This document shows, one piece after another, positions 9,971-24,446 of a DNA stretch of 64,000 bases. The DNA comes from an uncultured Subdoligranulum sp. (GTDB taxonomy: Bacteria; Bacillota; Clostridia; Oscillospirales; Ruminococcaceae). The position numbers and the translations under genes are program-made. Within the stretch, counting starts at the first letter, position 1, and each line of letters opens with the position of its first letter. The notes below the pieces were generated by a model. That model worked only from the letters and a program-made list of their open reading frames with translations. It was not told the origin of the DNA and did not search any database. The stretch is from the NCBI RefSeq assembly GCF_963931595.1, contig NZ_OZ007030.1, positions 548,481-612,480 of the forward strand. The letters run 5' to 3'.

Positions 9971-10004
9971 AAAACGGGCTTCCCCGGCGGGAAGCCCGTT
10001 TTTT
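9971..10004. terminator. Bidirectional terminator
   Basis: AAAACGGGCTTCC/GGAAGCCCGTTTT IR between convergent genes. Confidence 0.82.
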
Positions 10005-11073
10005 ATGCGGGATAGAAGTTGGACAGGATGGAGAGCATGGTGTCCAGGCTGCGCTCGTTGAATTCCAGAATCAGGATATCGCAGCCGGGCTGCTGCGCGA
10101 TGGCGGGATCGAAGGTGTCGATATGCTCGCGCCAGCAGCCGGCAAACCGGCTCTCCAGGTAGGGCATGTAATACTCGCTGAAGGAATCGCCGATGACCCG
10201 CACCACCCGGTCGTCCTTCTCAAACAGGGTGTCGTAGCCGGGCACCTCGTAGGTGGTCTCGGGGGGCAGCACGGCGTAGAGGGCGGCCACATTGGCCATG
10301 TCGCCGGTGGTGGTGCCGCTGGCCTGGACGGGATATTCCTCCGGCGCCAGGGTGGGCATCTCCAGCGCCGAAAAGATACCGTCCAGCCCGATGAGCGCCC
10401 CCACCGCGTTCCAGTGGGTGTCGGTCTTGTAGTAGAGCGGCCGCTCGGGATGGAGCTTGGCCTGGCTGCGCAGGGTGGGGTACTGCCACACCACCGGCAC
10501 CGTGGTGTGGGACTGCAGGTAGGCGGCCATCCGGTCGGTGCGGTTCTCCTCGCTGATGATGGGGTAGCCGTCCGGCATGTATTCCTGGTAAACCCGGTCC
10601 TTGCTGGGGGTCAGGTCCAGCACCAGGGTGCAGCCGTTCTCGGCCAGATCATCGCTGAGGATTTGCAGCGCCGCGCTGGCGCGGGCCAGTGTCTCCTCGC
10701 TGTCCTGCTGGTCGGTCAGGCCCTGGTAGTTGGCCACCGGCTGGGCCGCCGTGGGACCGTCCTTGTAGAACAGCCAGCCGTCCTTGCCCGGCAGCACCTG
10801 GTCGCTCTGGCTGCTGCCGAAGAGCTCATAGTCTATTCCGGCGTTCAGCAGCACGAACTGGTAGCGGAAGGGGGAATTGTCCACAAAGAAGTTGTCCAGG
10901 TTCTTGCTCAGTTCCCGCAGGGGGCTCTGCAGCACCTGGGGCAGGCCGGTCATCAGGCGGTTCTCGTGGCTGTCCATCGAGAGCTGCTTGGAAAAGATGT
11001 TGAACACGGCAAAGGAGAGCCCCAGTACCGCGCAGAAAACGACGATCAGAATGGTTTGCGCTGTCTTTTTCAC
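10003..11073 (-). CDS. AlgX/AlgJ-like SGNH O-acetyltransferase partner, membrane-anchored
   Basis: ENRLMTGLP, VLPGKDGWLFY, TPSKDRVY, LYYKTDTHWNAVGA, VIGDSF; follows an MBOAT gene. Confidence 0.85.
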   Translation of the reverse strand: MKKTAQTILIVVFCAVLGLSFAVFNIFSKQLSMDSHENRLMTGLPQVLQSPLRELSKNLDNFFVDNSPFRYQFVLLNAGIDYELFGSSQSDQVLPGKDGWLFYKDGPTAAQPVANYQGLTDQQDSEETLARASAALQILSDDLAENGCTLVLDLTPSKDRVYQEYMPDGYPIISEENRTDRMAAYLQSHTTVPVVWQYPTLRSQAKLHPERPLYYKTDTHWNAVGALIGLDGIFSALEMPTLAPEEYPVQASGTTTGDMANVAALYAVLPPETTYEVPGYDTLFEKDDRVVRVIGDSFSEYYMPYLESRFAGCWREHIDTFDPAIAQQPGCDILILEFNERSLDTMLSILSNFYPA

Positions 11074-11087
11074 GGGTCATCCCTCCT

Positions 11088-12497
11088 TTAGAACTGGAAA
11101 TAGATAAAGGCACTGTAGGTGCCGGCGGTCACCCGCATGAGGCTGAAGAAGAACAGCACCAGCAGCCCCGCCACCATGGGAACCCCGGGAGCCCTGCGGG
11201 CGTAGAGGGCTTCCTTCAGCCGCGGGAACAGGGCCTGCACAGGGCCGCACAGCAGTACGGCGGCGGCCAGGATCAGCAGCAGTTTGGTGTCGGTGAAGGC
11301 GGCCAGCGTGTAGCCGGGGGCGCCCTCCTGCCAGCAGAAAATGCCCTTCCATGCGTCCAGCCCCTGGGCCAGACCCGGGGCGCCGAAGATGATCAGCGTC
11401 AGCCACAGGACCACCACGGCGTAGAGATGCTGCACCGCGCCGGGCAGCTTCTCCAGCAGGCGGCGCAGACCCAGCCGTTCGAGACAGAGCAGCAGGCCGT
11501 GGAGCAGCCCGAAAAATACGTACTGCCAGGCGGCGCCGTGCCACAGGCCGGTGAGCAGGAAGACGATGATCAGGTTGCGGCAGGTGCACAGCGTGCTGCA
11601 ATGGCTGCCGCCCAGGGGAAAGTAGAGATAATCCCGGAACCAGCTGGACAGCGAGATATGCCACCGGCGCCAGTATTCGCCGATGCTTTTGGCCAGGTAG
11701 GGGTAGTCGAAGTTCTCCGGCAGATCCAGCCCGAAGAAGCAGCCGATGCCGATGGCCATATCGCTGTAGCCGGAAAAGTCAAAATACAGCTGCAGCATGT
11801 AGGCCACGTACCCCAGCACCAGTATGGGGGCGGGCACGGTGTCGGCGGGCACCGAGGTCACCCGCTGGTAGATCAGGGCGATCTGGTCGGCGATGATGGC
11901 CTTTTTGGAAAGACCGAAGATGAACCGCTTGATGCCATAGGCAAAGCGGTCAGCGGTCACACGGCGGGGTTCGCCCCGGGGATCCAGCATGGGGGCCTGC
12001 TGCCCGTAACGGACGATGGGGCCGGAGGGACCGTGGCCGAAGAAGGCAAGGAACACAAAGAACCGCAGGGGATTGCGGGCGGGCTGCACATGGCCGACGG
12101 CCACGTCGATGCAGTAGCCGATGGCCGTGAAGATGTAGAAGCTGATGCCCAGGGGCAGGGCCGGCGCCAGGACCGGCAGCAGGCCGGGCACAAAGGTGTT
12201 GACGGTCTCGGCGGCAAACCCGGCGTACTTGAAGACCGCCAGCACCCCCAGGTCCGCCACGATCAGCAGGATCAGCAGCACTTTTTTGAAGGGCAGATGT
12301 TTCAGCGCCAGGCCGCCCAACCAGTTGAGAGCGGCCAGCCCCACCAGCAGGGCAGCACCCCGCAGGCCGGACCAGGCGAAGAACACCAGGCTGAACAGGC
12401 AGAGCACGGCGTTGCGGGCAAAACGGGGCAGCAGATAATAGACCACCAGCGTCAGCGGCAGAAAGATAAAGAGAAATTGAACGGAAGAAAAGGCCAT
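11088..12497 (-). CDS. MBOAT O-acyltransferase (AlgI/PatA/DltB-like)
   Basis: LPLGISFYIF, QLYFDFSGYSDMAIG, ENFDYPY, WRRWHISLSSWFRDYLYFPLGG, LTGLWHGA, C-terminal FIYFQF. Confidence 0.95.
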   Translation of the reverse strand: MAFSSVQFLFIFLPLTLVVYYLLPRFARNAVLCLFSLVFFAWSGLRGAALLVGLAALNWLGGLALKHLPFKKVLLILLIVADLGVLAVFKYAGFAAETVNTFVPGLLPVLAPALPLGISFYIFTAIGYCIDVAVGHVQPARNPLRFFVFLAFFGHGPSGPIVRYGQQAPMLDPRGEPRRVTADRFAYGIKRFIFGLSKKAIIADQIALIYQRVTSVPADTVPAPILVLGYVAYMLQLYFDFSGYSDMAIGIGCFFGLDLPENFDYPYLAKSIGEYWRRWHISLSSWFRDYLYFPLGGSHCSTLCTCRNLIIVFLLTGLWHGAAWQYVFFGLLHGLLLCLERLGLRRLLEKLPGAVQHLYAVVVLWLTLIIFGAPGLAQGLDAWKGIFCWQEGAPGYTLAAFTDTKLLLILAAAVLLCGPVQALFPRLKEALYARRAPGVPMVAGLLVLFFFSLMRVTAGTYSAFIYFQF

Positions 12498-12624: not shown

Positions 12625-12653
12625 TAGACAACACCCCGCAAAAAGGCTATAAT
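12625..12653 (+). promoter_or_regulatory. Sigma-A promoter of the four-gene GT8-like/esterase/acyltransferase operon
   Basis: TAGACA-17-TATAAT. Confidence 0.75.
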
Positions 12654-12684: not shown

Positions 12685-13623
12685 ATGGAAAACCTGATCT
12701 TTGGAGCGTTTGCCACGCTGGAAGGCTACCGGGAGGGTGACGCCGCCAACCTGGGCCGCGGGGTGTATGACCGGTGCACCGTGGTGGCGCTGTGCAGTGC
12801 CAAAGCCCGGAACCCGAGGTGCACGGTGGCGCTGGTGACCAACGCACCGCTGCCCGAACCCTACGCCGGGCAGCTGGCGGCGGCCGGGGTGGAGGTGTGG
12901 CGCTGTCCCTTTGATAGTTACCGCGTTTCGGCGGAAACCAACTGGGCGCTGGCCTATTACAAGCTCTGTGCCATGGAGTGGGTGCTGGCCAACCGGGAGT
13001 TTGCCCGGGTGGCCATGCTGGACCTGGACACCTACACCCAGTATCCGCTGGATGATCTCTGGCGGGAGGCTGACGAGGCGGTGCTGCTCTACCAGACGCC
13101 CCACGCCGCCAGCCAGGGCATGGCCCAGGCCATCTCTGACATCTACGACGAGGTCCACCCCGAGGGAGCTCCCCATGTGCTGACCCATTTCGGCGGGGAA
13201 CTGGTGGCGGGCAGCAAGGCCCGGCTGCAGGACTTCCTGGAACGGTGCCGCTGTTACTATGACGCGCTGCAGCAAAAGGGCATCACGCCCCGGGAGGGCG
13301 ACGAAGCCATCTGGTGTGCCGCTGCCTACGAATGCCAGCAGGCCGGGCAGCCGGTGCGGGCGGCCAACGCCTATATTTTCCGGTACTGGCTGGGCGGGCG
13401 GTTCTATTTTGTCTCCACCAACTATGTGCTGGACCCCGTCTGCATCCTGCATCTGCCCGGCGCCGCCAAGGAGCGGCAGCTCAAGCTGCTCTATTACAGC
13501 TATACAAAGCGGGGAACCTTCCCGGCGGCGGCCCGGGTCCATAAACTGTGCTGCCTGCCTCCCGCCCGTCCGCCGCTGCTGGCGACGGTCTGGGTGCGGC
13601 TGAAAGCAAGACTCTGCCACTGA
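12685..13623 (+). CDS. Putative GT-A fold glycosyltransferase (GT8-like), divergent
   Basis: YYKL, VAMLDLDT (DxD), EGDEA (GT8 GDQ-like) and ILHLP motifs in the GT8 order. Confidence 0.55.
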   Translation: MENLIFGAFATLEGYREGDAANLGRGVYDRCTVVALCSAKARNPRCTVALVTNAPLPEPYAGQLAAAGVEVWRCPFDSYRVSAETNWALAYYKLCAMEWVLANREFARVAMLDLDTYTQYPLDDLWREADEAVLLYQTPHAASQGMAQAISDIYDEVHPEGAPHVLTHFGGELVAGSKARLQDFLERCRCYYDALQQKGITPREGDEAIWCAAAYECQQAGQPVRAANAYIFRYWLGGRFYFVSTNYVLDPVCILHLPGAAKERQLKLLYYSYTKRGTFPAAARVHKLCCLPPARPPLLATVWVRLKARLCH

Positions 13624-13639
13624 ACCAAAAGGAGCAACC

Positions 13640-14620
13640 ATGTCCCGACACACTTCCAAGGATCTGACCCAACGGCTGGAGACCGTCATCAAAACGCTGA
13701 TTCCCCAGCGCGGCCAGAGCGCCGACGAGCTGGGGCCGATGATGCGTGCCATCAAGGCCATCCACAGCGTTACCGACAATACTTCCACCTCCCCGGAGGA
13801 CCTGGAACGCCAGCGGGCGGCCCAGGAACTGTTCGGGCGGCTGGTGGCGCCCTCCCAGGGCATCCGCACCGACGGGCTGACGGTGGGCAAGGTGCCGGCC
13901 GAATGGGTGAGCCTGGAACACGGCCATGACCGGCGCCACGCGGTGCTCTACTGCCATGGCGGCGGTTTCACCTGCGGCCAGCTGGGCTATGCCCGGATTC
14001 TGGCCAGCAAGCTGGCCCTCTGCACCGGGTTTGACGTGCTCTCCTTCGAGTACCGCCTGTCCCCCGAGCACCGCTACCCGGCGGCGCTGCAGGACGCGCT
14101 GGCCATGTGGGATTATATGATGTATATGGGCTACGGCGCCCGGGATGTGATCGTGGCGGGGGATTCCGCCGGGGGCAACCTGGCGCTGGAACTCTGCCTG
14201 AAAATCAAGGCCCAGGGGCGCGCCCAGCCCCGGGGACTGCTGCTGTTCAGCCCCTGGACCGACATGACCACAGGGGGCAAGAGTTACCGCACCTGCCGGG
14301 ACCTGGACCCCATGCTGACGCTGGAATATGTGGAAGCGATACGGGCGGCCTACGCCGGGCCCGATGCCGAGTGGGCCGATCCCTGTTACAGCCCGCTGTT
14401 CGCCGATCTGCGGGGAATGCCGCCTGCCCTGATTCAGGTGGGCACCAACGAGATTCTGCGGTCTGACGGTGAGCGGCTGGCCGAAGCCCTGCAGAAGGCC
14501 GGCGGGTACGCCAGACTGGAAGTGTACGAGGAGTGCTGGCATGTTTTCCAGCAGATGCCGATCCATCGCGCCGAGGTGGCCATGGAGGCGGCCGGGCGGT
14601 TTGTGCAGCGGCTGATGTGA
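13640..14620 (+). CDS. HSL-family alpha/beta hydrolase (esterase/lipase)
   Basis: YCHGGGF oxyanion motif, GDSAGG nucleophile elbow, EILRSDG, WHVF. Confidence 0.92.
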   Translation: MSRHTSKDLTQRLETVIKTLIPQRGQSADELGPMMRAIKAIHSVTDNTSTSPEDLERQRAAQELFGRLVAPSQGIRTDGLTVGKVPAEWVSLEHGHDRRHAVLYCHGGGFTCGQLGYARILASKLALCTGFDVLSFEYRLSPEHRYPAALQDALAMWDYMMYMGYGARDVIVAGDSAGGNLALELCLKIKAQGRAQPRGLLLFSPWTDMTTGGKSYRTCRDLDPMLTLEYVEAIRAAYAGPDAEWADPCYSPLFADLRGMPPALIQVGTNEILRSDGERLAEALQKAGGYARLEVYEECWHVFQQMPIHRAEVAMEAAGRFVQRLM

Positions 14621-14651
14621 CCGGGGCGCAGCCCAGAAAACGAGGAGTCCT

Positions 14652-15902
14652 ATGTCCCAAGCATGGTACAAAGTTGATAATGTGGCCAAGGTGTTTCTGG
14701 CCACCACCACCCGTCGGGATCCGCGGGTCTTCCGGATCAGCTGCACGCTGACCGAGGAGGTGGAGCCCGACACCCTCAACGAGGCACTGCGCCGCACGGC
14801 GGGGGAGTGGCCCCAGTTCCAGGTTACACTGCACCGGGGGCTGTTCTGGCATTATTTTGAAGCCACCGACCAGCTGCCCGTGGCCAAGCCGGAGAACAAG
14901 GAGCCCTGTGCTCCGCTCTATGTGCCGGAGCGCCGCAACCAGCTCATCTACCGGGTGAGTTACTTCGGCGCGCGGATCAATCTGGAGATGTTCCACGCCA
15001 TGACGGATGGCAACGGCGGTTTTCTCTTCCTGAAATCGCTGGTGCGCAACTATCTGGCGCTGCGCCATCCCGGCACGCTGGACCATGTGCCCACCCCCAA
15101 CGGTGCCTCGGAGGCGGACCTGGCCCAGGACAGCTTCAAGAACTTTTACGAGGGCACCCGCCGCGCCAGCCCGGCCAAGGTACCCAAGGCCTATCACCTG
15201 CGGGGGGCGCGGCTGCCCTACGACCAGCTGCAGTATTTTGAAGGACATCTCAGCGCCAGGGAGGTGCTGGCCCGGGCCCGGACGCTGGGGGTATCGCTGA
15301 CCAGTTATCTGGGAGCTTCCCTGATGCTGGCCATCTACGGCGAGATGGCCACGATGGACCGGCGCAAACCCATCTCCATCAGCCTGCCGGTAAACCTGCG
15401 CAACTACTATCCCAGCGAGACGGCGCGCAACTTCTTCAATTCGGTTTATGTGACCCACACGCTGACCGACGGTGATACGCTGGCCACGGTGGCCCCGGTG
15501 TTTGACGCCAAACTCAAGGAGATCCTGCACCCCGAGAACATCAAGGCCCAGATGGACGAGTACGAAAAACTGGAGCACATGCCGGGCATCCGGCCGGTGC
15601 CGCTTTTCATCAAGAATCTGGCGGTGCGGTTCTTCACCCATCTGGAGGAAACCCACGTCACGGCGGTGCTCTCCAATATGGGCAGGGTGGAGGTGGCCGA
15701 GGAACTGCGGCCCTACATCCGGCAGTTTGCGGCCTTTTCCAGCTGCGAGGGGCTCTTCACCTGTGTGTGTTCCTATGGGGACGACCTGGTGCTGGGCACG
15801 GCCTCGGCTCTGCGCAGCACCAACGTGCTGCGGCGGTTTTACCGGGGACTGGCAGCCGACGGTCTGCAGGTCACCCTCTATGCAACGGAGGTGGAAAAAT
15901 GA
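14652..15902 (+). CDS. CoA-dependent acyltransferase, alcohol acetyltransferase / condensation (HxxxD) superfamily
   Basis: FHAMTDGNGG (HxxxDG), ISLPVNLRNYYPSETARNFF, VLSNMG. Confidence 0.8.
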   Translation: MSQAWYKVDNVAKVFLATTTRRDPRVFRISCTLTEEVEPDTLNEALRRTAGEWPQFQVTLHRGLFWHYFEATDQLPVAKPENKEPCAPLYVPERRNQLIYRVSYFGARINLEMFHAMTDGNGGFLFLKSLVRNYLALRHPGTLDHVPTPNGASEADLAQDSFKNFYEGTRRASPAKVPKAYHLRGARLPYDQLQYFEGHLSAREVLARARTLGVSLTSYLGASLMLAIYGEMATMDRRKPISISLPVNLRNYYPSETARNFFNSVYVTHTLTDGDTLATVAPVFDAKLKEILHPENIKAQMDEYEKLEHMPGIRPVPLFIKNLAVRFFTHLEETHVTAVLSNMGRVEVAEELRPYIRQFAAFSSCEGLFTCVCSYGDDLVLGTASALRSTNVLRRFYRGLAADGLQVTLYATEVEK

Positions 15903-16579
15903 AGACCTGTCCCCATTGTCATATCACCATCGGCGGCAGCGCGGCCTACTGCCCGCTGTGCCAGAACCGGCTGTCCGGCCCTGACGAAGCCCCCTGGTGG
16001 CCCAGGATCACGCCGCCGGTGCGGCGGTTCAGCCTGCTGTTCAAGATCGTTGCCTTTGTGCTGCTGGCCGCCACAATGGTGGTCATGGCCATCGATTTCC
16101 TGCTGGTGCCGGAGCCCCACCACCACGAAAGCCTGCTGATGCTGGTGTGGGTGGTGGCGGCACTGCTGGTGCTGCGGGGACTGCTGCGCCGCCGCTACAA
16201 CGGCCCAAGGCAGGTGTTCTCGCTGCTATTGCTGGTGTCGGGACTGCTCATCTTTACCGACTGGTACAACGGCTACACCGGCTACAGCCTGGACATTGTG
16301 ATTCCCATTCTTTGCAGTGTCACGCTGGTCTGCAATTTTATCTTTGCCTTCTGCCGCAGCCGCTTCACCCAGAACGCGCTGGTCTATATGCTGCTGAACA
16401 TCGGCATAGGCATTCTGCCTTATCTGCTGCTGCTCTTCCGGGTGGGGACCGGCCGCATCGATGCCCACAGCATCCCCTGGGTCATCTGCCTGATCATCAG
16501 CTCGGTGACCTGCCTGGGGCTTATCATCTTCCAGGGGCGCAAACTGCGCAGCGAACTGGAAAAACGCCTGCATATGTAA
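15899..16579 (+). CDS. DUF6320-like membrane protein with an N-terminal CxxC...CxxC zinc ribbon
   Basis: MKTCPHC..AYCPLCQ followed by ~6 TM helices, ending ELEKRLHM. ATGA overlap with the upstream gene. Confidence 0.72.
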   Translation: MKTCPHCHITIGGSAAYCPLCQNRLSGPDEAPWWPRITPPVRRFSLLFKIVAFVLLAATMVVMAIDFLLVPEPHHHESLLMLVWVVAALLVLRGLLRRRYNGPRQVFSLLLLVSGLLIFTDWYNGYTGYSLDIVIPILCSVTLVCNFIFAFCRSRFTQNALVYMLLNIGIGILPYLLLLFRVGTGRIDAHSIPWVICLIISSVTCLGLIIFQGRKLRSELEKRLHM

Positions 16580-16580
16580 A

Positions 16581-16614
16581 AACAGCCCCGTGTCCGTTGG
16601 GACACGGGGCTGTT
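16581..16614. terminator. Bidirectional terminator
   Basis: Perfect 15-bp IR AACAGCCCCGTGTCC/GGACACGGGGCTGTT. Confidence 0.85.
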
Positions 16615-16623
16615 GCTTATCAT

Positions 16624-17478
16624 TTATCGTTTGTCAAAGGCTTCCCGCCTCTGGGTGGATAGCCGGAACATCTCCTCCAGGCCTTCCCGGTCGTCCTCCA
16701 CCAGCTTTTTGCGCATATCCAGCAGCGTGTTGGTGAACATGTCGATCTCGGAGATCAGGTTGTCCTTGTTCCACAGGAACAGTTCCGCCCACATCTTGTC
16801 GTTGATCCGGGCGATGCGGGTCAGGTCCCGGAAGGAATCGCCGGTGTAGCGGGCCAGTTCCGAGTTGTCCGAAGCGCACATCAGGCTCACGGCGATGGCG
16901 TGGCAGAGCTGGCTCACATAGCCGATCATGTGATCGTGCTCGGCGGGGGTTAGCTCGCTGATCCGCTTGAAGCCCAGCGTCTCGGCCAGGTCATGGCACC
17001 AGTCGATGCCGGCCTGGGTGTTGCGGGCGGTGGGGGTGATGATGAAGTTGGCGGGGGCAAAATCCACCTCGGCGCTGTGGGCAATGCCGCTGGTCTCCCG
17101 CCCGGCCATGGGATGGCTGGCGATGAACTCCACACCCTCGGGCAGCATCTCCTGGATGGGTTCCACCACGCCCCGCTTGACGCCCGAAACATCGGTGACC
17201 ATCGTGCCGGGCTGCAGAAGATCCCCGTATTCCCGCACCCAGTCCAGCAGGACGGTGGGGTAGAGCCCGAAGATCACGCAGTCCGCCTTGATGACCAGGT
17301 CGGCAAAATCTTCGGTCTTGCCGGCACAGATATAGTCATGGCTCAGGGCGTAGTCCAGGGTGGACTGGCTGTGGGTGATGCCGGTCACACGGTAGCCTTT
17401 CTGGCTGAGCACCTGGGCGTATTTGCCGCCCAGCAGGCCCAGCCCCACGATCAGATAGGTTTTGCTTTTATCCAACAT
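16624..17478 (-). CDS. tyrA: Prephenate dehydrogenase
   Basis: GLGLLGG Rossmann motif, TDVSGVK, SHPMAGRE, HDHMIGYVSQLCH, SFRDLTRIA. Confidence 0.93.
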   Translation of the reverse strand: MLDKSKTYLIVGLGLLGGKYAQVLSQKGYRVTGITHSQSTLDYALSHDYICAGKTEDFADLVIKADCVIFGLYPTVLLDWVREYGDLLQPGTMVTDVSGVKRGVVEPIQEMLPEGVEFIASHPMAGRETSGIAHSAEVDFAPANFIITPTARNTQAGIDWCHDLAETLGFKRISELTPAEHDHMIGYVSQLCHAIAVSLMCASDNSELARYTGDSFRDLTRIARINDKMWAELFLWNKDNLISEIDMFTNTLLDMRKKLVEDDREGLEEMFRLSTQRREAFDKR

Positions 17479-19832: not shown

Positions 19833-21092
19833 TTACAGTGCAATGTCTGTTTCAAACAGCCGCACGGCGGCCTCCACGGTGTCGGCCAGCGCGCCGGAAT
19901 TGTCCAGCACGGCGTGGGCGGCTGCCTGGTAGAGCGGTGTGCGCTCGGCCTGCAGCTGCTTGAGGGCCGCGCCGCCCTGGGACAGCGGACGGCCGCCGGT
20001 GGCCAGCTTGCCCAGGGGGCGCTGGACCCACAGCACGCATCCGTTCTGGCGCAGGGCGTGGACGTTGGCGTGGGTCTTGATGACGCCGCCGCCGCAGGCG
20101 ATGACCTGCCCGGTGTGCTTGGCCACGTCGGCCAGGATGTCGGCCTCGTACCGGCGGAAGGCCTCCTCCCCCTCGTGGGCGAAGATGTCGGGGATATTGT
20201 TGCCGGTGCGGCGCTCGATCTCCTCGTCCAGATCCACGAAGGTCTTGTTCAGACGCTTGGCAAGGGCGGCGCCCACGGTGGATTTGCCGCAGCCCGGCAT
20301 GCCGATCAGCGAAACGTTGGAGAGTTCCCGCTGCAGCCGGCGGCTGGCGGTGGGAATCACGCTGTCCACCGCAAAGAACCGCCCGGTAAAGTGCTGGGCG
20401 GCATACACTGCCTGGGCCACCAGCATCTCAAAGCCGCCCACCGCCTTGATGCCGTGCTCCTCGGCGCGCAGCAGCAGTTCGGTGCGGAAGGGATTGTAGA
20501 CCACATCCAGCACCGCTTCCAGCTGGGGGAAGGCCGTGGGGTCCAGCATACACTGCCCCACGTTGGGGAACATGCCGCAGGGGGTGGTGTTGACGATGAT
20601 CTGCACGTCCCGGCGGCGCATGGCCTCGTTGTAGGTCAGCGCACCGAATTTGCCGGTGCGGCTGGCCGACAGGATGGTTTTGGCGCCGCTGTCCCGGCAG
20701 ACCGCCTCCACGGTGGAGTGGGTGCCGCCGGTGCCGAGGATCAGCACGGTTTTGTCGGCAAAATCCACGCCATGCACCTTGGCCAGATAGGAAAAGCCCA
20801 GGTAATCGGTGTTGTAGCCATAGAGCTTGCCATCCCGGTTGACGATGGTGTTGACGGCCCCGATGGCCTTGGCCTTGGGGTCCAGCACATCGCAGTAGGG
20901 GATGACCAGCTGTTTGTAGGGAATGGTCACATTGATGGCCGCAAAGGCGCGCTTCTCCATGAAGGCGCGGGCCTCCGCCTCGGTGGGCAGGGGAATCAGT
21001 TCGTACCGGTAGCCGGCCAGCTGTTCATGAATGATCTTGGAATAGCTGTGTCCCAGCTTGGCACCAATCAGACCATACAGTTTTTGTTCCAC
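19833..21092 (-). CDS. aroE: Fused shikimate dehydrogenase (AroE) - shikimate kinase (AroK)
   Basis: LGHSYS, NVTIPYK, GAVNT, NTDYLGF, then LIGMPGCGKSTVG, DLDEEIE, ACGGG. Confidence 0.92.
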   Translation of the reverse strand: MEQKLYGLIGAKLGHSYSKIIHEQLAGYRYELIPLPTEAEARAFMEKRAFAAINVTIPYKQLVIPYCDVLDPKAKAIGAVNTIVNRDGKLYGYNTDYLGFSYLAKVHGVDFADKTVLILGTGGTHSTVEAVCRDSGAKTILSASRTGKFGALTYNEAMRRRDVQIIVNTTPCGMFPNVGQCMLDPTAFPQLEAVLDVVYNPFRTELLLRAEEHGIKAVGGFEMLVAQAVYAAQHFTGRFFAVDSVIPTASRRLQRELSNVSLIGMPGCGKSTVGAALAKRLNKTFVDLDEEIERRTGNNIPDIFAHEGEEAFRRYEADILADVAKHTGQVIACGGGVIKTHANVHALRQNGCVLWVQRPLGKLATGGRPLSQGGAALKQLQAERTPLYQAAAHAVLDNSGALADTVEAAVRLFETDIAL

Positions 21093-21098
21093 AGCGGT

Positions 21099-22229
21099 TC
21101 ACATCCTTTCCTCAGAACTGTAGGTGGGCAGGCCGTGCTTCTGGGCCAGTGTGCCGTAGCGCACGGTAAACAGGTCCAGCAGCCCGAAGGCGGTCAGGGT
21201 ATTCTGCACCACCGCCGCCCGGGGCACGATGCAGGGATCGTGGCGGCCCTTGATCTGCAAAAGGGCATCCTTTTGTGCCACATAGTCCACCGTGTGCTGC
21301 TCTTTATAGATGCTGGCGGTGGGCTTGATGACGGTGCGGAAGACCAGCGGCATGCCGTTGGTGATGCCGCCGTTGATGCCACCGTTGCGGTTGGTGGTGG
21401 TGACGATCTTGCCGTCCCGCATGGTGAAGGGGTCGTTGGCCTCGCTGCCGCGCATACCGGCAAAGCGGAACCCGGCGCCGAACTCCAGCCCCTTGCAGGC
21501 GGGGATGGCAAACATCAGGTGGCCCAGCTCACTCTCCACGCTGTCAAACCAGGGCTCGCCGATGCCGGCGGGCAGCCCGGTGACGATGGTCTCCAGGATG
21601 CCGCCCACGCTGTCCCGGTCACTGCCGGCGGCGCGGATGGCGTCCTGCATGGCGGCTTCCCTGGAGGGATCCAGCAGCGCAAAATGGCCCGGCTCCGGCT
21701 CGGGCATGACCAGCCCGGCGGCGCTGGAAAGGGGGGCATCCTCGATGCCCGCGCAGGCCGCAATGTGGGTGTACACCCGGATGCCGAGACTTTTCAGCAC
21801 GCTCTCACACAGGGCACCGGCCGCCACCGAAGCGGCGGTGAGCCGTCCGGAAAAATGTCCGCCGCCCCGGGCATCCTGGAAGCCCTCGTACTTGGCGTAG
21901 GCCGTATAATCGGCGTGACCGGGGCGCAGCAGATCGGCCGTTTTGGCATAGTCACCGCTGCGGGTGTTGAGGTTGCGGATCATCAGCGCGATGGGGGTGC
22001 CGGTGGTATGGCCTTCATAAACGCCGGACAGAAATTCCACGGCGTCGGCCTCGGTGCGGGCGGTGGAAAGGCCGTCGCCGCGGGCACGACGGCGGTCCAT
22101 GGCGGCGGCGATGGCAGCCACATCCACCGGCAGACCGGCGGCCAGACCGTCCAGCACCGCGCCCACGGCGGGGCCGTGGCTCTCGCCGAATATGGTCAGA
22201 CTGATCGCGTTGCCAAAGGTGTTTTTCAT
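21099..22229 (-). CDS. aroC: Chorismate synthase
   Basis: FGESHG, RPGHADY, GGHFSGRLT, GGINGGITNG, GRHDPC. Confidence 0.95.
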   Translation of the reverse strand: MKNTFGNAISLTIFGESHGPAVGAVLDGLAAGLPVDVAAIAAAMDRRRARGDGLSTARTEADAVEFLSGVYEGHTTGTPIALMIRNLNTRSGDYAKTADLLRPGHADYTAYAKYEGFQDARGGGHFSGRLTAASVAAGALCESVLKSLGIRVYTHIAACAGIEDAPLSSAAGLVMPEPEPGHFALLDPSREAAMQDAIRAAGSDRDSVGGILETIVTGLPAGIGEPWFDSVESELGHLMFAIPACKGLEFGAGFRFAGMRGSEANDPFTMRDGKIVTTTNRNGGINGGITNGMPLVFRTVIKPTASIYKEQHTVDYVAQKDALLQIKGRHDPCIVPRAAVVQNTLTAFGLLDLFTVRYGTLAQKHGLPTYSSEERM

Positions 22230-22289
22230 CAGACAGAGTCCTTTCCGGGAAAAAACTGGTCCGCCGCCGGAGCAGCGGACGGGAAAAAC

Positions 22290-23315
22290 TTATTCCAGGC
22301 CCAGCAGGCGGGGCAGTTCGGAGGTGGAGATGGTGTCGGCCCGCCAGCAGCCCAGGCCGGGGCACTTGATGACCGTGATGTGGTCGCCCCGGGTCTTCTT
22401 GTCGTGCTGCATATACTCCAGCACCTTCGCCTTGTTGGCGCCGGTGCGGGTGGGCAGCCCCAGCGTGCGGTAGATGGCCCGCACCCGTTTTACCAGGGCC
22501 GGGTCCTCGATCATGGGCAGCATGCCCAGCGCCACGCACTCGCCGTGGTACAGCCCGGTGGTGCGGCGGCCGCGGATGCCCCGCACCGCCTCGATGCCGT
22601 GGCCGATGGTGTGGCCGAAGTTGAGGCAGGCGCGCACGCTACCTTCCCGCTCGTCCTGCTCCACGATCTTCTTCTTGAATTTCAGGCTGCGGTAGACGAT
22701 CTGCTCGATCTGTTCCTCGGGATGCTCGGTCTCAAACAGGGCGAACAGCTGGGCGTCGCCGATGAGGCCGGTCTTGAGGGCTTCCGCCAGACCGTTGACC
22801 ACATGGCGGCGGGGCAGGGTGGCCAGTGTATCGAAGTCCACCAGCACCACCTTGGGCTGCCAGAAGGCGCCGACGATGTTCTTGGTCTCCCCCAGGTCGA
22901 TGGCGGTCTTGCCGCCGATGGAGGAATCCACCTGGGCCAGCACGGTGGTGGGGCAGTTCACGAAGTCGATGCCGCGCATATAGCTGGCTGCGCAGAAACC
23001 GCCCAGATCCCCCACAACACCGCCGCCCACGGCCACCAGCAGGTCCTTGCGGTCCATATCGAAATCCAGCATGGCCTGCAGGACCTGGCCGAAGACCTTC
23101 AGGCACTTGCTGCCTTCGCCCTGGGGAATGGTGTAGATGGTGGAATGGGGGCACTGGGCGGCGATGGTCTCGGCATACTGCCGGGGCACGCCGGAATCGG
23201 TCAGTACAAACACCTTGCGGTTCTGCACGTTGGTGAACTGGTGCAGGTTGGCAAGGCAGCCCCCCTTCAGGATGATGTCATAGCTGCGGCTTTTCAGTTG
23301 CATCGTCAGTTTCAT
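22290..23315 (-). CDS. aroB: 3-dehydroquinate synthase
   Basis: GEGSK, GGGVVGDLGGF, PTTVLAQVDSSIGGKT, LNFGHTIGHGIE, HGECV. Confidence 0.95.
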   Translation of the reverse strand: MKLTMQLKSRSYDIILKGGCLANLHQFTNVQNRKVFVLTDSGVPRQYAETIAAQCPHSTIYTIPQGEGSKCLKVFGQVLQAMLDFDMDRKDLLVAVGGGVVGDLGGFCAASYMRGIDFVNCPTTVLAQVDSSIGGKTAIDLGETKNIVGAFWQPKVVLVDFDTLATLPRRHVVNGLAEALKTGLIGDAQLFALFETEHPEEQIEQIVYRSLKFKKKIVEQDEREGSVRACLNFGHTIGHGIEAVRGIRGRRTTGLYHGECVALGMLPMIEDPALVKRVRAIYRTLGLPTRTGANKAKVLEYMQHDKKTRGDHITVIKCPGLGCWRADTISTSELPRLLGLE

Positions 23316-23333
23316 GCTTCGCACGTCCTTTTG

Positions 23334-24446
23334 TCATCGATTGTTTTCCGCCGTATCCAGCGTAAAGGCGCCCACAAGCCGCAGCGTGCTGCAGTCGGTG
23401 CGCAGAATGTCCAGCAGCGCCTCGCAGTCGGCGCGGGTGCTGCCGGCGGGGCAGACCAGCTGAACGTAGAAATAGTATTGGAAGGGCACATGGGGCAGCG
23501 GGCGGCTCTTGATGCACTCCATATTGAAGCTGCGGGCGCCGATCTGGTCCAGTACCGCCGCCAGCCGGCCCGGTTTGTGCCGGGCGGTGAAGAGCAGCGC
23601 CAGCCGCTGGCCCTCCCCGGTCATAACGGGCGGCTGCTCGGCGCGCTCGATCACGATGAACCGGGTGGTGTTGTCGCCGTCGGCGTTGACGCCCGCCGCC
23701 AGGATCTGCAGCCCGTACAAATCGGCCGTCTCGGCACTGGCGATGGCTGCCACCGACGGGTCTTTGAGCTCGGCAATGTGCTTCGCGGCGTCGGCGGTGT
23801 TGCTCCAGGGCTGGGTGGTCAGGCCGTGCTGCTGCAGGAAGACGCTGCTCTGGGCCAGGGCCTGGGGATGGCTGATGACGGTGCGGACCCCAGCCAGGGT
23901 TGCCCCCGGCACACCCAGCAGATCCTGACGGATGGGCAGGTCGCACATCCGGGCCACGATCAGCCCGGGATGGGTGTAGAGCAGGTCCAGCACGGTGGAA
24001 ACATCCCCGGCATTGGAATTCTCAAAGGGCAGCACGCCGAACTCGGCGTCGCCATTCTGCACGGCGTCAAAGACTTCCGCCCAGGTGGCAAAGGAGAGTG
24101 TACGGGAAAAAGGAAACAGCCGCCGCAGGGCGATGTGACTCCAGGCCCCCTGCACGCCCTGGTAAGCGGCGGTGTCCCGGCCCAGCATGGCGCGCTGGTA
24201 AGCGCGGGAGACGGCCATCGCTTCCTGCAAAAACGTGCGGTAGTAGGGGCGCAGGGTTTCATCCTGCAGACGGGCTGTGTTTTTATCCAGGACGGCCGCC
24301 TCGCGGACGGCATCGAAAATCGGCTTGCCGGTCTGGGCCTTGTAGCGTGCCACGTCGGCCACCGCCCGCATCCGCCGCTCGAAGAGGGAGGCCATCTCGG
24401 CGTCCACGGCGTCAATTTCGGTGCGCGCTTGCTGTAACAGGTCCAT
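23334..24446 (-). CDS. pheA: Bifunctional chorismate mutase / prephenate dehydratase
   Basis: N-terminal AroQ-type CM (EIDAVD..LFERRM), then YQGVQGAWS, LPFENS, SHPQALAQ, NTTRF and an ACT domain (IKSRP). Confidence 0.93.
   Translation of the reverse strand: MDLLQQARTEIDAVDAEMASLFERRMRAVADVARYKAQTGKPIFDAVREAAVLDKNTARLQDETLRPYYRTFLQEAMAVSRAYQRAMLGRDTAAYQGVQGAWSHIALRRLFPFSRTLSFATWAEVFDAVQNGDAEFGVLPFENSNAGDVSTVLDLLYTHPGLIVARMCDLPIRQDLLGVPGATLAGVRTVISHPQALAQSSVFLQQHGLTTQPWSNTADAAKHIAELKDPSVAAIASAETADLYGLQILAAGVNADGDNTTRFIVIERAEQPPVMTGEGQRLALLFTARHKPGRLAAVLDQIGARSFNMECIKSRPLPHVPFQYYFYVQLVCPAGSTRADCEALLDILRTDCSTLRLVGAFTLDTAENNR

Follow-up and report, generated by a model that had tools for sequence, protein, structure and literature searches.

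Do an acyltransferase and an esterase that are encoded side by side in a gut bacterium undo each other's work on a hydrophobic alcohol, and which of the neighbouring genes belong to the same system? The question is raised by four open reading frames (ORF1 to ORF4) on the plus strand at positions 12685-16579 of a 64-kb stretch of DNA from an uncultured Subdoligranulum sp. (contig NZ_OZ007030.1); the whole stretch is called the window here, and positions are counted in it unless another locus is named. ORF1 is a predicted glycosyltransferase, ORF2 an HSL-type esterase, ORF3 an acyltransferase (AT) and ORF4 a membrane protein of the family DUF6320. An earlier reading made from the letters alone (the sequence-only reading) had regarded all four genes as one possible acylation/deacylation cycle, like that of the yeast proteins Atf2 and Say1. 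Our analysis showed that the conserved unit is the trio of esterase, AT and DUF6320, with a fixed gene order, while ORF1 is a lineage-specific, dispensable passenger. The conservation evidence for the trio is robust, and what the trio does we infer from sequence comparison.

Conservation of the three-gene unit

Genomes were surveyed with one genome per species, which gave at least 591 relatives of ORF3, and the six-frame ORFs of the best 80 loci were searched with the window proteins. These loci include Lachnospiraceae, Oscillospiraceae, Blautia, Dorea, Herbinix, Mobilitalea, Sporobacter, Ethanoligenens, Anaerocolumna, Peptococcaceae and Tissierellaceae. A DUF6320 gene lay directly 3' of the AT gene on the same strand in 77 of the 77 loci that had room for it, and the remaining three of the 80 were truncated. 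Where the two genes were unfused (59 pairs), the median gap was 6 nt, 20 pairs overlapped and 54 gaps were no longer than 30 nt; in 17 of the 80 loci AT and DUF6320 formed a single ORF. An Abhydrolase_3 esterase gene stood directly 5' of the AT gene in 71 of the 80 loci. We then took DUF6320 as the starting point of a reverse test, with a 12-sequence alignment (the full set of 25 diverse sequences was too divergent) and metagenome contigs whose sources included fermentations, bioreactors and the human gut. The AT gene was directly upstream of DUF6320 in all 57 of these loci with room, and the esterase gene stood directly upstream of the AT in 44 of 48. The representative library also contained natural fusions of both kinds, esterase with AT (P0172, P0229, P0238) and AT with DUF6320 (P0134, P0150, P0190, P0203, P0185, P0230). 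The sequence-only reading had proposed to check whether the three genes co-occur, and by these counts and fusions they very clearly do; its own ground for refutation, a lack of co-conservation, does not apply to the trio.

Of the other gene families even the commonest, a generic ABC-F ATPase, was found in no more than 19 of the 80 neighbourhoods, so the module is self-contained. PADLOC gave no match for any of the four window proteins, which means that the module fits no defence system catalogued there. The same module was found in the gut genera Gemmiger, Faecalibacterium, Blautia and Dorea and in chicken-gut metatranscriptome assemblies, and also in free-living or bioreactor Clostridia (Herbinix, Mobilitalea, Sporobacter, Anaerocolumna, Sporanaerobium) and in fermentation metagenomes.

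ORF1 stands outside this unit. It had no match in Pfam or NCBIfam (E<0.01) and none by sequence in the Protein Data Bank (PDB). Foldseek placed its AlphaFold2 model (pLDDT 86.7) beside retaining GT-A enzymes, namely GT6, GT24 and the GT8 domain of LARGE1 (E ~1e-9, TM-score ~0.5, probability 1.00). The DxD motif is D113-L-D115, which comes after a central strand (E108-112), and conservation of the two aspartates is 90% or higher. The model and motif point to a GT-A fold with DxD, and ORF1 is a predicted glycosyltransferase. The earlier label "GT8-like" can therefore be kept for the fold; as a family assignment it has to be dropped, since no profile match to glycosyltransferase family 8 (Glyco_transf_8) was obtained. 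The 172 homologues of ORF1 were Gemmiger-like without exception, and in more distant relatives no ORF1 was seen beside the trio, GH43 or EamA genes being found 5' of the esterase instead. At one locus (L089) ORF1 is present and the trio is not with it. At another, in G. formicilis DFI.6.10 (L009, 4900-4995), the promoter is kept; behind it comes an ORF1 remnant that encodes just the ~17 C-terminal residues (…HPPLLRTVWTRLLARL*), with the esterase gene directly after it, evidently a deletion of the GT-A gene. Because ORF1 is restricted to Gemmiger, missing beside distant trios, able to occur apart from the trio and reduced to a remnant in a close relative, it is a lineage-specific passenger, and the idea that it forms part of the system was given up.

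Esterase, acyltransferase and DUF6320

ORF2 matched Abhydrolase_3 (PF07859) with 187.2 bits (cut-off 25, E 4.1e-55). The motifs named in the sequence-only reading were all there, HGGG at 106-109 and GDSAG at 174-178 with Ser176, followed by an acidic residue (Asp 275/276) and His301; HGGG, GDSAG and His301 were 100% conserved across 72 loci. By profile, motifs and predicted Ser-Asp-His triad, ORF2 is a bona fide family-IV/HSL esterase. It also exceeded the cut-off of Say1_Mug180, the steryl acetyl hydrolases (PF10340; 54.5 bits against 21, E 1.2e-14), a match that is confined to profile positions 124-271 of 374 and much weaker than that to Abhydrolase_3. The nearest solved structures were 9izt, E40, EstD11 and PMGL3 (E 1e-45 to 1e-51). 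Like E40, EstD11, PMGL3, EST2 and AFEST, ORF2 has HGGG, GDSAG and the Ser-Asp-His triad; unlike them it is tied to an AT by operon or fusion, whereas those enzymes stand alone, are mostly metagenomic and have no assigned physiological partner. Neither a signal peptide nor a transmembrane segment was found in any esterase type of the module or in the AT, so synthesis and removal of the ester would both take place on the cytoplasmic side.

The esterase position was not always filled by the same protein. The window and its nearest Lachnospiraceae relatives have a type A esterase, closest to E40/EstD11, and the majority of loci have a type B esterase, closest to AFEST/PestE/EST2; the two types share 25-33% identity over the core and form two family-IV subclades. 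Among the nine of 80 loci that lacked an Abhydrolase_3 gene, four (L054, L059, L080 and L088) carried a gene of the pectin-acetylesterase (PAE) family directly 3' of DUF6320, which looks like a non-orthologous esterase replacement (Table 1). As the divergence between types A and B and the PAE genes in these four loci show, the esterase partner was swapped in evolution, and what was kept is a predicted esterase activity, not one given protein. Family-IV and PAE esterases are typically short-chain or acetyl esterases.

ORF3 contains the motif F-H-A-M-T-D-G, in which H115 and D119, as well as G120, are invariant in 80 of 80 sequences. Its AlphaFold2 model (pLDDT 84.4) gave PapA5 as the top Foldseek match (1q9j, E 2.5e-17, TM-score 0.6), followed by condensation (C) domains of nonribosomal peptide synthetases, TRI3/TRI101, BAHD enzymes and a mannosylerythritol-lipid acyltransferase. 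The model had 253 PDB matches at E<=0.001, and every one was of the two-lobed condensation/CAT fold. With this predicted fold and the HxxxD motif, ORF3 is placed in the CoA-dependent acyltransferase/condensation-CAT superfamily. At the level of profiles the placement is looser. The window protein reached 18 bits against PapA_C (PF16911, cut-off 30), with PapA5 aligned at the HxxxD motif, and it had no match to AATase (PF07247), the family of Atf1/Atf2. Among 45 diverse members of the ORF3 family (E<0.01), 32 matched PapA_C, 18 matched AATase and one matched WS_DGAT_C, and in a separate scan three further relatives (P0150, P0238, P0134) exceeded the AATase cut-off of 22 bits. This suggests a superfamily or sister relationship to AATase, with membership not established for the window protein. 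The sequence-only reading was right about both enzyme classes, with ORF2 above the Abhydrolase_3 and Say1_Mug180 thresholds and ORF3 in a family many of whose members match AATase or PapA_C.

ORF4 belongs to DUF6320 (PF19845), which it matched over the full-length profile (1-186) with 120.7 bits (cut-off 29.9, E 8.5e-35). It overlaps ORF3 by 4 nt (ATGA), as the sequence-only reading had noted, and through this overlap the two genes are coupled in translation. The protein begins with a Cys4 zinc ribbon (C4, C7, C18, C21; CxxC...CxxC), followed by about six hydrophobic transmembrane helices according to hydropathy, and by the positive-inside rule both termini would be in the cytoplasm. Conservation in the family is highest in a W/G-rich loop that joins helices 3 and 4, W-D-x2-T-G-W-x-G-W-S-x-D-Y-V-x-P, which has the form TDWYNGYTGYSLDIVIP in the window. 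The Cys4 ribbon was missing from all 17 AT-DUF6320 fusions and its four cysteines were kept by every unfused DUF6320, and because of this pattern we infer that the ribbon would dock the AT where AT and DUF6320 are separate proteins. A word-index homologue search with ORF4 returned close relatives only and no new architectures, and our literature search found no paper on DUF6320.

A tentative mechanism and its rivals

We tentatively propose, giving it a little less than an even chance, that the trio is a membrane-tethered writer/eraser system for the acylation and deacylation of an alcohol that is lipophilic or resides in the membrane. The soluble AT would be kept on the cytoplasmic side of the membrane by DUF6320, covalently in the fusions and probably through the zinc ribbon where the two are separate proteins. 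Through His115 and Asp119 the AT would pass the acyl group of a thioester onto a hydroxyl of this alcohol. The probable donor is a short-chain acyl-CoA such as acetyl- or butyryl-CoA, because the partner esterases usually act on short acyl groups and Clostridia have plentiful acetyl- and butyryl-CoA but little long-chain acyl-CoA. The cytoplasmic esterase (Ser176, Asp, His301) would take off the same ester, so that AT and esterase would set the steady-state level of the O-acylated lipid or lipophilic alcohol as a homeostasis or detoxification pair. The role of DUF6320 would be that of a membrane platform, and it may also present the substrate. A more specific version, which we regard as speculative and on balance improbable, is that AT-DUF6320 is a new membrane machine for a short-chain O-acylated (e.g. 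acetylated or butyrylated) membrane lipid, glycolipid or polyprenol. In that version the W/G-rich loop would present or flip the lipid and the cytoplasmic esterase would tune its level, Clostridia-wide and including the dominant gut butyrate producers.

Pairs of a lipid-modifying transferase and a dedicated hydrolase have experimentally established precedents in Atf2/Say1 of yeast, ErdS/ErdH of fungi and MprF with adjacent aminoacyl-lipid hydrolases of bacteria (PMC7334510). With Atf2/Say1, which acetylates and deacetylates sterols, the trio shares an AATase-type HxxxD AT, an HSL-fold esterase, membrane association and the writer/eraser logic. It differs in that the bacterial pair is co-encoded, sometimes fused and always accompanied by DUF6320, which yeast lacks; moreover the window AT is under the AATase threshold and sterols are absent from most module hosts. 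ErdS/ErdH and MprF with its hydrolases place a transferase and a dedicated alpha/beta-hydrolase side by side as a homeostasis system, and ErdH is a PF07859 protein like ORF2 (PMC7334510). However, ErdS and MprF use aminoacyl-tRNA (DUF2156/MprF domains) where the AT has an HxxxD thioester-dependent fold, and the bacterial hydrolases of aminoacyl-phosphatidylglycerol are secreted where the module esterases are cytoplasmic. The components and the transferase-plus-hydrolase logic are thus already known, and no description of the three-part architecture with DUF6320, of the fusions or of the Clostridia-wide breadth was found in the literature.

Several points weigh against the writer/eraser proposal. 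The window ORF3 stays below the Pfam thresholds for both AATase and PapA_C, the AlphaFold2 models come from shallow alignments with Foldseek TM-scores of only 0.5-0.68, and PapA5, the nearest structure, draws its acyl group from a carrier protein and not from CoA. Nine of the 80 loci have no Abhydrolase_3 neighbour. The catalytic activities are predicted from superfamily membership, the donor, acceptor, ribbon docking and presentation or flipping of the substrate by DUF6320 are predictions too, and the literature search found no characterised member of the AT family or of DUF6320. Substrate channelling along a sequential pathway would be served by an esterase-AT fusion no less well than two opposing activities. 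The acylation/deacylation cycle with its Atf2/Say1 analogy fits in outline, but a futile cycle is only one of two readings of the trio, as a sequential pathway accounts for the fusions equally.

In this main rival, which we judge rather unlikely, the hydrolase would be a deacylase or transacylase whose step precedes or follows that of the AT, and the two would build or remodel an acylated membrane (glyco)lipid with DUF6320 as a platform or translocator like Sap/MmpL. The order of work could be to deacylate and then reacylate, as in a Lands cycle, or to transfer acyl groups between molecules, as Chp1/Chp2 do with PapA. Besides the fusions, the fixed order of esterase, AT and DUF6320 speaks for it, and so does PapA5 as the top structural neighbour of the AT; the GT-A-fold gene 5' of the trio in the Gemmiger operon hints at a glycosylated acceptor. 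In Mycobacterium tuberculosis, PapA works with the transacylases Chp1/Chp2 and with MmpL8/Sap and MmpL10 in making sulfolipid-1 and polyacyltrehalose, so that an HxxxD AT, a hydrolase-fold enzyme and membrane partners couple synthesis to the membrane as the trio might (PMC3318749, PMC4183827). But the Chp enzymes resemble cutinases and are anchored in the membrane, the module's esterases being soluble family-IV proteins, DUF6320 is unrelated to RND-type proteins such as MmpL, and the trio belongs to another phylum. Lipid-synthesis genes do not recur nearby, and polyketide synthase (PKS) or carrier-protein genes did not recur in 160 neighbourhoods, nor is a FadD gene found near the trio; a PKS-associated, PapA5-like role was rejected on the lack of recurring PKS, acyl carrier protein and FadD genes. 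The exchange of the esterase for unrelated lineages, sometimes at another position, and its absence beside the AT in the nine loci are more in keeping with a generic eraser than with an enzyme that co-evolved in a pathway.

The sequence-only reading had named bile acids, sterols and glycolipids as possible substrates and the membrane protein as exporter or anchor. Its specific version, taken as a gut-adapted detoxification of host or dietary hydrophobic alcohols such as bile acids and sterols, like Atf2/Say1 and with DUF6320 as an exporter, we consider quite improbable. In its favour, ORF2 and ORF3 share a family or superfamily with their yeast counterparts (Say1_Mug180 for ORF2, AATase in P0150), and gut genera such as Gemmiger, Faecalibacterium, Blautia and Dorea commonly carry the module, which is also seen in chicken-gut metatranscriptome assemblies. 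The match to Say1 is limited to the core that hydrolases have in common, however, genes for bile acids or sterols were linked to the module in none of the 160 neighbourhoods, and nothing marks DUF6320 as a transporter, so that these substrates have no support. Since Clostridia that live outside hosts carry the module and bioreactor and fermentation metagenomes contain it, its general role cannot depend on a host-derived substrate; in gut species a version with bile acids or sterols may hold.

The AT could also be compared with wax ester synthase/diacylglycerol acyltransferase (WS/DGAT), which belongs to the same two-lobed HxxxD superfamily and makes O-esters of hydrophobic alcohols; WS/DGAT works without a dedicated membrane partner, and membership of ORF3 in WS/DGAT (PF03007) was rejected, as its motif is F-H-x3-D-G and not HHxxxDG and there was no match to WES_acyltransf/PF03007. 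A role in neutral-lipid or volatile esters, with the AT as wax-ester/acylglycerol synthase or as alcohol acyltransferase on fermentation alcohols and acyl-CoAs and the HSL esterase as mobilising lipase, is accordingly very doubtful: the superfamily is shared with WS/DGAT and AATase, one member matches WS_DGAT_C, HSL-family enzymes mobilise storage lipid in other organisms and Clostridia are rich in short-chain acyl-CoAs and alcohols, but the partner esterases resemble short-chain carboxylesterases and not lipases, and an obligate partner with six transmembrane helices would be needless for soluble volatile esters.

Expression signals, neighbouring genes and significance

Table 1 Features of the locus, of its neighbours and of the loci with a PAE-type gene (window positions unless a locus is named)
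Feature	Position	Strand	Remarks
AlgX-like SGNH protein	10003-11073	minus	PF16822, 9.5e-23
MBOAT/DltB-like membrane O-acyltransferase	11088-12497	minus	PF03062, 2.6e-23; TIGR04091, 3e-46, below cut-off
Sigma-70-type promoter-like site TAGACA-17-TATAAT	12625-12653 (TAGACA 12625-12630, TATAAT 12648-12653)	+	11/12 consensus positions
ORF1	12685-13623	+	312 aa; predicted GT-A glycosyltransferase fold, DxD; outside the conserved module
ORF2	13640-14620	+	326 aa; family-IV (HSL-type) carboxylesterase
ORF3	14652-15902	+	416 aa; predicted HxxxD O-acyltransferase (AT), PapA5/AATase-like
ORF4	15899-16579	+	226 aa; DUF6320 membrane protein
Hairpin	16581-16614		15 pairs, 10 G-C; 3' of the last stop codon
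Prephenate dehydrogenase (tyrA)	16624-17478	minus	convergent with the trio operon
Fused shikimate dehydrogenase-shikimate kinase	19833-21092	minus	419 aa
PAE-family (pectin-acetylesterase/Notum-like) gene	L054 7946-9157		Pfam scan; no signal peptide
PAE-family (pectin-acetylesterase/Notum-like) gene	L059 8044-9420		Pfam scan; no signal peptide
PAE-type gene	L080 8067-9275		BLAST clustering with the L054/L059 genes
PAE-type gene	L088 7932-9119		BLAST clustering with the L054/L059 genes

The four genes are as tightly linked behind a TAGACA-17-TATAAT site as the sequence-only reading had described, with 16 nt between ORF1 and ORF2 and 31 nt between ORF2 and ORF3, and every start has an AGGAG/GAGGAG Shine-Dalgarno-like sequence just upstream (Table 1). 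Promoter-like sites of this quality numbered three in the region against 1.1 +/- 1.0 in shuffles, and the core ATAGACAA...TATAATA is kept at two other Gemmiger loci, L009 (G. formicilis) and L091. The organism is a Gemmiger-like member of the Oscillospirales, and its nearest named relatives are Candidatus Gemmiger excrementavium and G. formicilis (~78% identity for ORF3). The terminator claimed after the last gene is present as a hairpin whose stem is followed by a T-run on the minus strand, so it is most likely a bidirectional terminator common to this operon and the convergent tyrA (aromatic-amino-acid) operon.

Assembled chicken-gut metatranscriptome contigs from related strains cross the ORF1/ORF2 and ORF3/ORF4 junctions, none of them covering all four genes. 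They break in both flanking intergenic regions, ending at 16572 and starting again at 16808. These contigs support expression, though not full-length co-transcription, and are consistent with an operon. In a metagenomic "RNA-Seq" run (X3), contig joints at 12347/13835 and 14075/15385 skip 1487 and 1309 bases; each was seen in one contig, with 20-24 letters on the short side, and they are probably assembly chimeras between strains.

Upstream of the operon a divergent pair of genes for an MBOAT and an AlgX-like protein occupies 10003-12497 on the minus strand, and it looks like a two-component system for extracytoplasmic O-acylation of polysaccharide or teichoic acid. A functional link of this pair to the trio is unsupported for the family, as the two are adjacent only in Gemmiger. 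In 12 loci of the Herbinix, Mobilitalea and Anaerocolumna group a gene for a TraX-family membrane protein (PF05857, 1.6e-44; L023 9878-10600) lies just 3' of DUF6320 and is followed by DUF5721 and HtpG. TraX itself is linked to acetylation. Because the gene travels with DUF5721 and HtpG, it is probably lineage synteny and not a part of the module. On the other side of the window operon, a convergent aromatic-amino-acid operon runs on the minus strand from 16624 to ~24000; besides the two genes listed in Table 1 it encodes EPSP synthase, DAHP synthase, chorismate synthase, DHQ synthase and chorismate mutase/prephenate dehydratase. A long plus-strand ORF at 19914-24437 was discarded as an antisense artefact of the high G+C content.

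The module is very common, as the AT family alone comprises 2382 clusters at 50% identity (E<=1e-3), and it is found in abundant gut genera as well as in environmental anaerobes, while the literature search gave no published function for the AT family or DUF6320. The fixed order, the translational coupling and the natural fusions suggest that the three proteins work as one machine, which makes the trio a clear experimental target. If an acylated membrane lipid, or a lipophilic metabolite in modified form, turns out to be what the trio makes, this would give a function to a Pfam domain of unknown function and would provide a bacterial counterpart to the homeostasis systems Atf2/Say1, ErdS/ErdH and MprF with its hydrolases.

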